64,000 nt of DNA from the NCBI GenBank assembly GCA_902761905.1, contig CACWMK010000010.1, positions 3,215-67,214 of the forward strand. Direction: 5' to 3'. The notes beneath the pieces are model-generated. The model saw nothing but the letters and a program-made list of their open reading frames with translations. It ran no database searches and was not told where the DNA came from. Below, piece after piece: positions 2,773 to 4,500 of the stretch (within the stretch, counting starts at the first letter, position 1; the number at the start of each line of letters is the position of its first letter). Made by a program: the position numbers and the translations under genes. Source of the stretch: an uncultured Prevotellaceae bacterium. GTDB lineage: Bacteria; Bacteroidota; Bacteroidia; Bacteroidales; Bacteroidaceae.

Positions 2773-3435
2773 ATGGCATCAGAGAAGATTGCTATGGGGA
2801 TTAATCTCCGACAGAACAAAAACAAAAACAACGCCGGTTACGGCAAGTATTATCCTGAGGTTGACCAGCAGAAGACATTGAGTCTGCGTGGATTCGCCGA
2901 GCACATGGTCAGCCACGGCTGTCCTCACGGCCGAGCCATCGTAGAGGGCGTGCTGATGCAGATTACCGAGTGTCTGCCAGAGTTGGTGGCACAGGGCATT
3001 CCAGTACAGTTGGGCAGTCTGGGTATCTTCTACCCTACAGCCGAGGTGGCCGAGAATGGTGCAGTGGCCAGCATCGCTGCCATGGACGGTCTGAACCCCA
3101 GCGACATCGTGAAGGCTATCCACATCAGATTCTTGCCCGACTCGACCAAGCTCGACAACCTGTGCGGTCCTAAGTTTAAGGATGCATGTGCTCTGGAGTT
3201 GCGCAACATCGTAGACACCAAAGAGGTGACGGTGGACGGCAAGAAGAAAAAGGTACAGACGCTTAAGCCAATCGCCACAGCAGTAGCAGAGTACAAGTCG
3301 GGTCAGTCAGCATCGAGCGGCCCCAGCCAGAGCGGCAATACTGGTGGTAGTCAGACCCCAAGTCAGGGTGGCAACACCAGCGGAGGTGGTAACACCGGCG
3401 GCGGCGGCGATGACGACGACGTAACCTACGATTAA
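2773..3435 (+). CDS. Bacteroidetes HU/IHF-like DNA-binding protein with a Gly/Ser-rich tail
   Basis: GKYYPEV...TLSLRGFAEHM...V.GVL......ELVAQG.PVQLGSLG.FYP pattern, followed by a low-complexity G/S/N/T tail ending DDDDVTYD. Confidence 0.8.
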   Translation: MASEKIAMGINLRQNKNKNNAGYGKYYPEVDQQKTLSLRGFAEHMVSHGCPHGRAIVEGVLMQITECLPELVAQGIPVQLGSLGIFYPTAEVAENGAVASIAAMDGLNPSDIVKAIHIRFLPDSTKLDNLCGPKFKDACALELRNIVDTKEVTVDGKKKKVQTLKPIATAVAEYKSGQSASSGPSQSGNTGGSQTPSQGGNTSGGGNTGGGGDDDDVTYD

Positions 3436-3481
3436 AGCACCGAGGCTGGGGCGCAAGCCCCACCCTCTCCTAACACCCCTC

Positions 3482-3645
3482 TGTCATCTCGACTAAGCGT
3501 AGCATCCCCCTCTGTCATCTCGACTAAGCGTAGCGCATGGAGAGATCTCATGATCTCATGTAGGAGATTTCTTGGACAAGCCAAGCGGCAGAGCCGAGCG
3601 CTCGACTACGCTCGAGATGACAAGGCTGGGGGGAGCGAGATGACA
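3482..3645. repeat. Cluster of MITE/REP-like palindromic elements (TGTCATCTCGA...TCGAGATGACA)
   Basis: Truncated left arm at 3482-3503, full 110-bp element at 3513-3622 with 11-bp terminal inverted repeats, and an extra right-arm fragment CGAGATGACA at 3636-3645. Confidence 0.8.
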
Positions 3646-3702
3646 AAAGGAAAACAAAATCAGTAAAATCCGTATAATCCGTAGGAAAAACAGAAAAAGC
3701 GT

Positions 3703-3804
3703 ATGACCAAGAAGGAAACCATCAAGTTTGTAGTTCAGCTTATCGCATCGATTGCATCGGCGATACTGACGGCACTGGGAGCGACATCGTGCGTAGGCGC
3801 GTAA
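3703..3804 (+). CDS. 33-aa 'smalltalk'-family small hydrophobic protein
   Basis: Not in the ORF track. MTKKETIKFVVQLIASIASAILTALGATSCVGA*, with the family's K..I.F...LIAS.A.AILTALG.TSC pattern, in its usual position after an HU-like gene and followed by a terminator. Confidence 0.8.
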   Translation: MTKKETIKFVVQLIASIASAILTALGATSCVGA

Positions 3805-3813
3805 CAAATGAAT

Positions 3814-3845
3814 AAGGCTTGCATCTGATTGCAAGCCTTTTCTTA
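3814..3845 (+). terminator. Intrinsic terminator
   Basis: AAGGCTTGCA-tctgat-TGCAAGCCTT followed by TTCTT. Confidence 0.7.
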
Positions 3846-3873
3846 TTGTATGCCAGGTACCTGTCCCCTGGCA
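3841..3873. repeat. REP-like palindromic direct repeat, copy A
   Basis: TCTTATTGTATGCCAGGTACCTGTCCCCTGGCA with TGCCAGG/CCTGGCA arms; 31 of 33 identical to copy C. Confidence 0.8.
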
Positions 3874-3879
3874 TAAAGC

Positions 3880-3990
3880 TCAGAATATCTGTGCTATCTG
3901 TTGGGGTCTGTCCTTTTCCTTTGCACCTGCTACATTGTCAAGCTGCTCGTCTTTGAGCTCATCTTGCTTCTTGATTTCTTCTGTTTTCAT
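3880..3990 (-). CDS. 36-aa peptide with a double-glycine-type leader (precursor 1)
   Basis: Not in the ORF track. MKTEEIKKQDELKDEQLDNVAGA-KEKDRPQQIAQIF*; the leader matches EL.DEQL..V.G[GA]. Confidence 0.75.
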   Translation of the reverse strand: MKTEEIKKQDELKDEQLDNVAGAKEKDRPQQIAQIF

Positions 3991-4055
3991 AATTGTAAAG
4001 TTTTAAAATGTTAATAATAATATTTATTTTTTTAATTAATAATTTTACTCAGACG

Positions 4056-4082
4056 TGTATGCCAGGAACCTATCCCTCGGCA
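4056..4082. repeat. REP-like palindromic direct repeat, copy B (degenerate)
   Basis: TGTATGCCAGGAACCTATCCCTCGGCA. Confidence 0.65.
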
Positions 4083-4097
4083 GCGTCATTGGCAGCG

Positions 4098-4232
4098 TTA
4101 AGAGACATCTTTGGCTCTTTCCTTGAACTCTTTTATCTCTTTAATGAGATCTTCTACTTCACCTGCACCTGATACATTGTCAAGCTGCTCGTCGTTGAGC
4201 TCATCTTGCTTCTTGATTTCTTCTGTTTTCAT
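4098..4232 (-). CDS. 44-aa peptide with a double-glycine-type leader (precursor 2)
   Basis: Not in the ORF track. MKTEEIKKQDELNDEQLDNVSGA-GEVEDLIKEIKEFKERAKDVS*; 21 of 23 leader residues identical to precursor 1. Confidence 0.75.
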   Translation of the reverse strand: MKTEEIKKQDELNDEQLDNVSGAGEVEDLIKEIKEFKERAKDVS

Positions 4233-4272
4233 AATTGTAATGTTTTAATGTTTTTATTATTGTTTTCTGCTG

Positions 4273-4280
4273 CAAAAGTA
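4273..4280 (-). promoter_or_regulatory. -7 promoter element for the peptide pair
   Basis: TACTTTTG(CAGC) on the minus strand, about 40 nt upstream of ATG 4232. Confidence 0.65.
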
Positions 4281-4371
4281 GGAAAAAAAATCGAAATAGA
4301 TGTATCACTGCTGGAAAAAGTTGTATCAAATCAGGAAAAAATGTCAGGAGTCCCCATGGACGAACGAAAGA

Positions 4372-4431
4372 AAGGCCAGCAGTTAATGCTAGCCTTTATC
4401 TTATTGTATGTCAGGGACCTGTCCCCTGGCA
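4372..4431. repeat. Hairpin plus REP-like direct repeat, copy C
   Basis: AAGGCCAGC-agttaat-GCTAGCCTT hairpin, then TCTTATTGTATGTCAGGGACCTGTCCCCTGGCA (4399-4431); same arrangement as 3814-3873. Confidence 0.8.
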
Positions 4432-4442
4432 GAGTTACCCCT

Positions 4443-4500
4443 TGTCATCTCGACTAAGCGCAGCGCATGGAGAGATCTCTCGACTAAGCTCGAGATGACA
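4443..4500. repeat. 58-bp MITE/REP-like palindromic element
   Basis: TGTCATCTCGA...TCGAGATGACA terminal inverted repeats; left arm nearly identical to 3513-3549. Confidence 0.8.

Follow-up and report, generated by a model that had tools for sequence, protein, structure and literature searches.

A probably bicistronic pair of double-glycine-leader peptide genes in a rumen Prevotella relative, likely to be served by a distant C39 exporter under a shared tandem operator

Based on the evidence collected in this study, two small genes in the window (the whole stretch of 64,000 nucleotides that was analysed) are best understood as a bicistronic operon for double-glycine (GG) leader peptides. The peptides appear to be processed and exported by a C39 peptidase-containing ABC transporter (PCAT) encoded on another contig of the genome (C14), to be co-regulated with it from a common operator, and to belong to a family whose members exchange their cores. 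We assign this explanation as a whole a probability of about 0.72. In the mechanism proposed, the operon would encode ribosomally made, probably unmodified peptides, the 23-residue leader of which would dock through L-12, L-7 and V-4 in the C39 domain of the NHLM-type transporter on C14. The C39 domain would cut the leader after Gly-Ala, and the 21-aa and 13-aa cores would exit through an ABC/HlyD/TolC channel. The shared tandem operator would place the window pair under common control with the exporter and some 19 further genes for GG peptides, its likeliest binder being a lineage-specific subfamily of membrane-spanning AraC-type activators, and recombination would swap the cores while retaining promoter, UTR and leader. 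The sequences themselves show the genes and their family, the constraint on the leader, the intact exporter, the operator and its linkage to the regulator across species, and one exchange of cores between strains. Translation, cleavage, export, the box-binding protein and the biological role of the peptides are what we infer here; the route of processing and export appears well supported by the conserved features from which it is deduced.

Window positions 3600-4500 were read with all ORFs of at least 20 aa listed, and two small ATG-initiated ORFs were found, both on the minus strand. The features of the locus, from high to low coordinate, are these:

4371..4397, minus strand: terminator-like hairpin (by folding) that ends the upstream nitroreductase gene
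4301..4340, minus strand: tandem operator box TTTTTCCTGATTTGATACA-AC-TTTTTCCAGCAGTGATACA, PWM score 57.5
4273..4280, minus strand: Bacteroidota-type -7 promoter box TACTTTTG, which fits TAnnTTTG and has a constant position in all boxed promoters
4233..4272, minus strand: A/T-rich 5' UTR ending in ..aacattacaatt before the ATG, conserved and common to paralogous cassettes
4098..4232, minus strand: peptide gene 2 (ORF2), 44 aa, MKTEEIKKQDELNDEQLDNVSGAGEVEDLIKEIKEFKERAKDVS; leader 4164-4232, MKTEEIKKQDELNDEQLDNVSGA; predicted core GEVEDLIKEIKEFKERAKDVS
4057..4081, minus strand: degenerate copy of a REP-like palindrome, GCCGAGGGATAGGTTCCTGGCATAC, with a weak fold, not a terminator
3880..3990, minus strand: peptide gene 1 (ORF1), 36 aa, MKTEEIKKQDELKDEQLDNVAGAKEKDRPQQIAQIF; leader 3922-3990, MKTEEIKKQDELKDEQLDNVAGA; predicted core KEKDRPQQIAQIF
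3848..3872, minus strand: REP-like palindrome GCCAGGGGACAGGTACCTGGCATAC, present in 33 copies genome-wide
3814..3839, minus strand: intrinsic-terminator-like hairpin that closes the two-gene unit, bidirectional and also ending the DUF6486 gene

The preliminary description of this DNA had recognized both ORFs, and what it saw of their leaders, cores and promoter box holds. The leaders, MKTEEIKKQDEL[N/K]DEQLDNV[S/A]GA, are identical in 21 of 23 residues and 67 of 69 nucleotides, while the cores are unrelated; the -7 box TACTTTTG lies at 4280-4273, where it had been placed; and the two ORFs are preceded by near-identical 5' UTRs (..aacattacaattATG and ..aactttacaattATG). Predicted core 2 has 21 aa with a net charge of -2 and a GRAVY of -0.95, and its amphipathic-helix moment has p=0.03. 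Predicted core 1 has 13 aa, a net charge of +1 and a GRAVY of -1.37. Both are as poor in modifiable residues as had been claimed, with no Cys and 0-1 Ser/Thr. The monoisotopic masses calculated for the unmodified cores are 1599.87 Da (KEKDRPQQIAQIF) and 2461.31 Da (GEVEDLIKEIKEFKERAKDVS).

Terminator-like hairpins at 4397-4371 and 3839-3814 bracket the pair. No terminator was found between the two ORFs, where the intervening element folds no better than shuffled sequence, so that the pair probably forms one bicistronic unit. On the distal side, the 68-nt fold at 3815-3882, consisting of terminator-like hairpin and REP-like stem, has z = -5.2; the hairpin on the upstream side (4371..4397) lies within a 59-nt block that is 100% identical to the end of a peptide cluster on contig C20. 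The flanks comprise nitroreductase and GH25 lysozyme genes upstream, and DUF6486 and HU-HIG genes downstream, in convergent orientation. Neither a transporter nor a tailoring enzyme was seen near the pair.

The same leader recurs well beyond the two window copies. The host genome, a 3.45-Mb assembly of 100 contigs from a rumen relative of Prevotella/Xylanibacter ruminicola, holds 12 near-identical leaders (six-frame scan and leader HMM, E 1e-13 to 1e-17; independently confirmed), which the leader HMM distributes as two in the window, one on contig C6 and nine in the C20 cluster (C20:2644-7022). On C14, next to the exporter, there are two diverged copies, and some 7 other GG peptides, made up of a long-leader class (consensus MATLT.EQIEQKKQQLK...ELVEAGAWPLS..DLD.V.GG) and one peptide on contig C48, bring the total to about 21. 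Among 5.8 billion proteins searched, 48 metagenome protein clusters carry essentially the same leader in front of many cores. Recurrence of the leader 12 times in the genome and in 48 metagenome clusters is far beyond chance, and what the preliminary description proposed from two copies, a fixed leader with a variable core, is thus extended to a multi-copy family (12 close leaders, 48 clusters) with hypervariable cores. These are 11-35 aa long and mostly hydrophilic (GRAVY mostly -0.2 to -1.7), with net charges of -5 to +5. Recurrent types can be told apart among them: an ORF2-type family of G/S-x-x-x-D-[LVI]-I-K helices (xxxD[LVI]IK), an ORF1-type family that ends in ..PQIA[QM]IF and includes one in-frame length variant, a GEFTSYDKSDRPR-like family and a Lys-rich, GAAGKAGKVSKKVIK-like family, GAAGKAGKVSKKVIK itself having a charge of +5.

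Judged by sample names and organism titles, the family belongs to rumen Prevotella and X. ruminicola relatives; one homologue is labelled 'bacteriocin-like protein' by JGI. A search of 1.84 billion cluster representatives yielded only ten matches at E<=0.001, and one of these is a protein of 1658 aa. Applied to 150 further genomes of the genus, the leader HMM found nothing comparable, the two weak matches having a different operator. The peptide family is, as far as these searches define it, narrow and lineage-specific, and thus out of reach of broad comparative genomics. Some copies run on into the next cassette or a REP element, and in the members at C20:6432-6710 and C20:2644-2859 the core is not followed by a clean stop, so that decay may affect some of the copies.

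Assignment of the leader to the double-glycine type, as made in the preliminary description, agrees with the recognition pattern for a PCAT that can be read from it: L-12, L-7, V-4, G-2 and A or G at -1. The leader rule calls for hydrophobic residues at -4, -7 and -12 and an acidic residue near -8 (PMC6363468). L-12, L-7 and V-4 are invariant in 13 paralogues; position -8 is Q and position -9 is E. The 23-aa window leaders end in ..VSGA and ..VAGA, GG being found at the aligned position in 10 of the 12 close paralogues; PCAT proteases accept GG, GA and GS as cut sites (PMC6363468). Matches to curated leader models are weak, with best scores of 14-15 bits against cut-offs of 32-51 (such as TIGR03798, TIGR03793, NF038167). 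Those at E 0.02-0.05 involve the cleavage-proximal ends of Nif11, NHLP and CTB-bacteriocin leader models; only the last ~20 model positions align, and in TIGR03798 these are positions 44-67 of 68. Pfam returned no match.

Purifying selection acts on the leader across the paralogues. The pN/pS ratio is 0.30 across 13 paralogues, and the residues L12, L17, V20 and G22 (-12, -7, -4, -2) are invariant although two or three codons are used for each. The window pair differs by 0 synonymous and 2 nonsynonymous changes, so these two copies alone cannot show selection; the ORF1 leader differs from its syntenic orthologue by 4 synonymous changes and 1 nonsynonymous, conservative change. It had been considered at the outset that leader conservation might reflect nothing but recent neutral duplication, with dN about equal to dS; a pN/pS of 0.30 across paralogues puts the conservation beyond that.

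The exporter required in trans is present. Peptidase_C39 (PF03412) has exactly one match in the genome, on C14 and outside the window, in a locus that supplies HlyD and TolC partners, and the earlier expectation of a C39-ABC exporter elsewhere is thereby borne out. The operon is ordered C39-ABC (713 aa), second ABC, HlyD adaptor and TolC-like OEP, with the C39-ABC gene preceded by that of an HlyD-like 278-aa protein. Scored against the models of the NHLM export cassette (TIGR03794/03796/03797; Haft, Basu & Mitchell 2010, PMC2887384), it reaches 892 bits for TIGR03796 (cut-off 853), 700 bits for TIGR03797 (cut-off 709) and 99 bits for TIGR03794 (cut-off 156; partial). The closest relative of the peptidase domain is LahT150 (PDB 6MPZ, E 2e-55), and the C39 active site is intact, Q14/C20/H92/D109 aligning to Q21/C27/H101/D117 of LahT. 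One GG peptide with a related leader, MKQDDLKKEQQLNEQQLDEVTGG followed by KHTISSRDPEA, is encoded inside the exporter operon and a second one divergently upstream of it. Among 101 genomes of the genus, 7 carry other NHLM-type PCAT loci; in the one inspected (genome G262) the upstream region showed no box and no GG peptide, only a STAS protein.

Modified Nif11/NHLP peptides are the typical cargo of NHLM-type exporters (PMC2887384). In the present genome, searches gave no match for YcaO, and the only SPASM protein was the anaerobic sulfatase maturase (781 bits). LanC was not matched either, in a search whose control likewise matched none of 14 reference genomes and which is uninformative for that reason. 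The preliminary description had seen no modifying enzyme in the window; in the genome, no lanthipeptide, YcaO or RiPP radical-SAM enzyme was found, with the LanC search carrying no weight (empty control). Since no tailoring enzyme was found, the peptides are probably exported unmodified.

The tie between peptides and exporter is suggested by a shared operator together with a membrane AraC regulator, both of which the preliminary description had missed. The 168 nt upstream of ORF2, used as a BLAST query on the genome, revealed the promoter block at the other peptide operons, and pattern and PWM scans followed. The operator consists of TTTTTCC-N5-TGAkACA twice, that is, 19-bp direct repeats with a 21-bp period, and the distance from its end to the -7 box is fixed at 20 nt exactly. 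The PWM scan of the genome gave 9 strong sites (score 51-59), 2 weak ones (28) and nothing else down to a score of 22. All 11 sites are at peptide or exporter promoters, as are all 18 of the exact half-sites that occur genome-wide; a control scan with the reversed pattern gave 0 matches. The sites obtained in the pattern and PWM scans are distributed as follows:

Short-leader units: the window pair, three C20 operons and the C6 peptide
C48: a peptide, then a C10 protease gene
C22: three long-leader units
C14: the divergent peptide and the PCAT operon itself

One boxed C22 unit is a lipoprotein-like ORF of 200 aa whose N-terminus is of the long-leader kind, and another boxed C22 GG peptide is directly followed by three GT8 glycosyltransferase genes. 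A scan for the box pattern in 200 further genomes of the family, with up to 2 mismatches allowed, gave no match.

Between the two C14 boxes is the gene of a candidate regulator, an AraC/HTH_18 protein of 232 aa that has two TM helices at its N-terminus; the stop codon of this gene abuts the box of the PCAT operon. Five close paralogues of its HTH occur genome-wide, at 44-57% identity, other AraC proteins being at most 31% identical, and four of the five sit in the C22 peptide island. The two C22 paralogues examined have a lipobox signal, an external TPR region of ~360 aa, a single TM helix and an HTH on the cytoplasmic side, which amounts to a predicted ToxR-like topology. Direct repeats that are bipartite, have a 21-bp period and lie next to the promoter are what AraC/XylS activators use. 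Binding of the box by an AraC protein, which we infer, agrees with this usage.

From 28 other rumen Prevotella genomes we took orthologues of the C14 regulator with 50-61% identity, and a tandem box lies within ~130 nt downstream of the TM-AraC orthologue at 24 of 29 loci of other species. The box varies between species (TGAAACA, TGAGACA, TGATACA). In all 13 boxed loci examined downstream, it is followed by a conserved small membrane protein (conserved part ~60 aa, M..VFQRWRISDNNAHLKEFIDEN..), such that the order conserved in other species is regulator, box, small TM protein. The eight related genomes scanned have only 1-2 boxes each, preceding a small membrane protein, lipoproteins or proteases. 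We had expected TM-AraC orthologues beside a PCAT in other species as well; this failed, tblastn having found none. Given orthologue loci without a PCAT and only 1-2 boxes per genome, the box would not originally have been a peptide-export operator. The regulator-box pair is, from this comparison of loci, ancestral and cis-linked, with an operator that predates its use for peptides, and its spread to 11 promoters together with the recruitment of GG-peptide cassettes and PCAT operon appears specific to this lineage.

Comparison between strains suggests how the cores diversify. Synteny with the window, with flanks 97.9% and 94.9% identical, was seen in a metagenome scaffold of 100 kb, in which the C-terminal half of core 2 (window positions 4083-4128) has given way to 136 nt of unrelated sequence, resulting in GKVEDVIKKTKEISDQLNKDVESVILKS. 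Other strains have different core pairs behind the same box and leader. Within the genome, the window and the C20 cluster share blocks of 59-113 nt that are 92-100% identical. From these patterns the family is understood to evolve as cassettes, in which promoter, UTR and leader supply the homology and the cores are exchanged. REP-like palindromes (33 copies genome-wide) flank the cassettes; as an element specific to peptide cassettes the palindrome was rejected, 23 of the 33 copies being at unrelated genes. Orthologous cores are nearly identical in nucleotides between strains, with few differences, all nonsynonymous, and selection on the cores is not measurable because of this near-identity.

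Regarding the role of the peptides, for which the preliminary description allowed signalling or antagonism, we lean towards diffusible signals or interference peptides rather than membrane-active bacteriocins. The estimates that we attach to role, decay and modification are separate ones and not meant to sum to one. Cell-cell signals, sensed in the periplasm by the TPR-TM-AraC proteins or by the TM-AraC protein with a small membrane partner, are a tentative possibility compatible with our best explanation: the regulators would bind the tandem box and exert positive feedback on exporter and peptide genes. It draws on the one operator common to the exporter operon and all peptide operons, on the regulator gene being flanked by two boxes, and on the paralogues that combine lipobox, external TPR region of ~360 aa, single TM helix and cytoplasmic HTH. 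The cores are short and hydrophilic, moreover, with C-terminal motifs kept across strains (e.g., PQIA[QM]IF, despite an in-frame indel), and no immunity gene was seen. However, other species keep the regulator-box pair without GG peptides or an adjacent PCAT, hence peptide sensing is not required for it, and about twenty different signals per cell would be unusual. Antagonism, by which the peptides would be class II bacteriocins or microcins with hypervariable cores arising from an arms race among rumen Prevotella, is in our estimate only slightly less probable than signalling; it concerns the role and is compatible with the account of processing and export. A multi-copy family that exchanges its cores between strains behind a conserved leader would suit it, as would an exporter from the 'NHLP bacteriocin export' family, the weak leader matches to the CTB bacteriocin model, the homologue called 'bacteriocin-like protein' by JGI, and paralogous cores that are cationic and amphipathic, e.g., GAAGKAGKVSKKVIK at +5. 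The window cores themselves are short, very hydrophilic, of charge +1 and -2 and free of Cys, unlike bacteroidetocins and class II pore formers, and no immunity-like membrane protein was found in the window operon or its flanks.

The remaining alternatives question what the cores are, or whether there are peptides at all. Only the promoter-UTR-leader cassette might be meaningful, or selfishly duplicated, with arbitrary cores and the window copies being remnants of the C20 cluster. We consider this improbable. The 2-nt difference between the window leaders, both changes nonsynonymous, the near-identical blocks of 59-113 nt shared with C20, the copies that read through into the next cassette or REP element, and cores devoid of synonymous variation all count in its favour. 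Several strains nevertheless retain the two window cores with their clean stops, at the syntenic locus and in different surroundings, and core families hold their length and key residues, the in-frame indel preserving ..PQIAxIF. Tailoring of RiPP precursors by enzymes beyond the reach of standard searches, e.g., the three GT8 glycosyltransferases of the regulon, appears very unlikely to us. It would be in keeping with the position of these genes directly after the boxed C22 GG peptide and with the modified Nif11/NHLP cargo typical of NHLM-type exporters (PMC2887384). Against it are the failure to find YcaO, a RiPP rSAM enzyme or LanC (the last with an empty control), the few modifiable residues offered by cores with 0-1 Ser/Thr and no Cys, and the location of the GT8 genes, which is near neither the window nor the C20 cluster. 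Lastly, the high nucleotide conservation of the leader DNA could mean that the ORFs are untranslated and that the conserved stretch acts as RNA or DNA. This reading is hardly tenable in view of the pN/pS of 0.30, the invariant ATG, the in-frame indels, the clean stops and the exact fit of the leader to the PCAT recognition pattern.

The operon that we favour, one for GG peptides processed and exported in trans, has analogues among known systems. The Nif11/NHLP precursors with their NHLM cassette, prochlorosins included (PMC2887384), use the same exporter family, form large paralogous families with a leader ending in GG or GA and hypervariable cores, and are likewise scattered far from the exporter that serves them in trans. 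Their leaders are ~60-80 aa long, whereas the leader here has 23 aa and no homology to Nif11 or the nitrile-hydratase alpha subunit. They differ further from the present system in that the latter has no LanM, cyclodehydratase or rSAM partner that could be found, has cores poor in Cys, Ser and Thr, and resides in a rumen Bacteroidota host with one operator linking all genes. Because the leader is short, the homology domain is lacking and no tailoring enzymes were found, the window peptides are judged from their sequences not to be members of the Nif11/NHLP precursor families. LahT with its LahA precursors from Lachnospiraceae C6A11 (PDB 6MPZ; PMC6363468) provides the closest solved C39 domain, with identical catalytic residues, and the likeness extends to one promiscuous protease for many precursors with similar leaders and diverse cores, to the pattern V-4, L-7, L-12, and to cut sites of GG, GA or GS. 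The LahA peptides are lanthipeptide precursors encoded beside their synthetase; here the precursors are dispersed, no synthetase was found, and an outer-membrane route by HlyD/TolC is implied. By analogy, the mechanism is read as NHLM/LahT-like, with one promiscuous C39 exporter for many scattered precursors.

Short, unmodified GG peptides exported by a PCAT are also found in ComC/BlpC/PlnA with ComAB/BlpAB and in pneumococcal Rtg (PMC7018657). As in the Com/Blp/Pln regulons, the exporter and several peptide operons are under one promoter-proximal direct-repeat operator. LytTR boxes have a 21-bp repeat period, equal to the period here. Unlike Com/Blp/Pln/Rtg, there is no linked histidine kinase with LytTR and no Rgg, the candidate regulator being a membrane-spanning AraC-type protein, and in distinction from the Gram-positive GG regulons the host is diderm and has more peptides (about 21). 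The cores of bacteroidetocins are ~40 aa long, class IIa-like, disulfide-bonded and encoded beside the transporter; those of the window differ in having 13 and 21 aa, no Cys and a hydrophilic character, and in lying far from the transporter. Common ground with bacteroidetocins is the origin in Bacteroidales, the GG leader and the use of a PCAT (Coyne et al. 2019, PMC6671954). The class II bacteriocin traits of a cationic or hydrophobic core of >=~30 aa, often disulfide-bearing, and an adjacent immunity gene are not seen in the window peptides.

GG-motif peptides and PCATs have already been noted in Bacteroidales (PMC10352776, PMC6671954). Our literature search returned no description of this leader family, its operator or the regulator link, and almost nothing on peptide secretion or signalling in Prevotella, a genus dominant in the rumen and frequent in the human gut. 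One species is now seen to carry about 21 unannotated genes for predicted secreted peptides, which gene finders and RiPP miners miss because the genes are short and far from biosynthetic genes; through the shared operator, all members of the regulon can be traced by sequence. On the whole, the genes have the appearance of a coordinated system for peptide secretion whose general kind is known and whose regulator is unusual. Its notable features are the operator-defined regulon, the possible control of a diderm PCAT by a membrane AraC protein, and the number of hidden genes. An auto-inducing Bacteroidota circuit, in which PCAT-exported GG peptides act outside the cytoplasm on ToxR-like TPR-AraC sensors that bind the tandem 19-bp operator, with ~20 recombining peptides, is a speculative and rather unlikely extension; if true, its assembly would be recent, through the spread of an ancestral single-copy operator within one rumen Prevotella lineage. 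Control by the membrane-spanning AraC subfamily, which the linkage suggests, would give a diderm PCAT a circuit unlike the two-component and Rgg circuits of Firmicutes, and the core swaps between near-identical flanks would constitute a natural allele set for strain-level interference or recognition in the rumen.

The tandem operator box (TTTTTCC-N5-TGAkACA twice, 21-bp period) introduces several units of the genome that hosts the window.

C14:9106-9390 (L004 4107-4391): small membrane protein gene, first gene 3' of the box of the PCAT (exporter) operon
C48:33986-36751 (L006): boxed promoter unit
C22:40000-63000 (46001-66000 of the contig being L005): island of AraC regulators and double-glycine-leader (GG) peptides
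C22:58794-62011: three tandem GT8 glycosyltransferase genes, immediately 3' of a boxed GG peptide

The small membrane protein on C14 has orthologues of ~60 aa that also come after the box in other species, and in the C14 protein the C-terminus is extended by a tail that contains a GG-like motif (LNEDDLDVVAAAG|VNKKNTISEDPLND). On C48, the boxed promoter leads into two small ORFs, one of them encoding a GG peptide (MAQELNEEELEQATGG|LSANRTVKMPHEF), and these are followed by an 808-aa Spi-inhibitor/Peptidase_C10 (streptopain-like) protein; C10 proteases are likewise found 3' of the box in the orthologous loci of other species. The C22 island groups four paralogous AraC regulators of one HTH subfamily; in two of these the HTH is combined with a lipobox, a TPR region and a single TM helix. 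Long-leader GG peptides are encoded there as well, as are a C11 peptidase and an LRR protein of the BspA type. The products of the GT8 genes located there could serve in peptide modification.

The peptide genes of the window lie among copies of two dispersed repeats.

Window 3848-3872, 4057-4081 and 4406-4430, minus strand: REP-like palindrome GCCAGGGGACAGGTACCTGGCATAC
Window 3549-3600 and 4440-4500: second dispersed repeat, an inverted-repeat unit (..GCGCTTAGTCGAGATGACA..)

The palindrome occurs in 33 copies over 9 contigs, with 10 of the 33 in peptide loci, and is a generic intergenic element, not one specific to the peptides. The inverted-repeat unit reaches ~134 copies genome-wide. Leader cassettes of the window type have an HU-HIG gene and one for a 33-aa DUF6486 protein as neighbours in at least four distinct genomic contexts (window 2773-3804; stretches L036, L038 and L089). 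The recurrence of this neighbourhood suggests a common hotspot for insertion or recombination, or else that the genes are functionally linked.

The peptide cluster on C20 includes a read-through ORF.

C20:6432-6710 (L001), minus strand: ORF spanning two complete leader-core cassettes

Both cassettes are spanned because the first core is without a stop codon; the ORF is either a copy in decay or a precursor with two leaders. Another ORF of the contig, C20:2644-2859, likewise continues through a REP-like element. The cluster also contains a protein with STAS and APH domains (L001:3118-4434); in another species (L092; G262:C63), a STAS-domain protein is encoded immediately upstream of the NHLM-type PCAT operon.

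Lastly, two further genomes of the same genus (G345 and G346; L017/L018) encode analogous small GG peptides (MEENKKTNPLADEQLDEVNGG|RLDQKLLRESERELRRKYN). Upstream of these lies another tandem repeat, made of two copies of TTTTCC..TGGCTSAC at a ~31-32-bp period, a hint of parallel operator-leader pairs that are each specific to their species.
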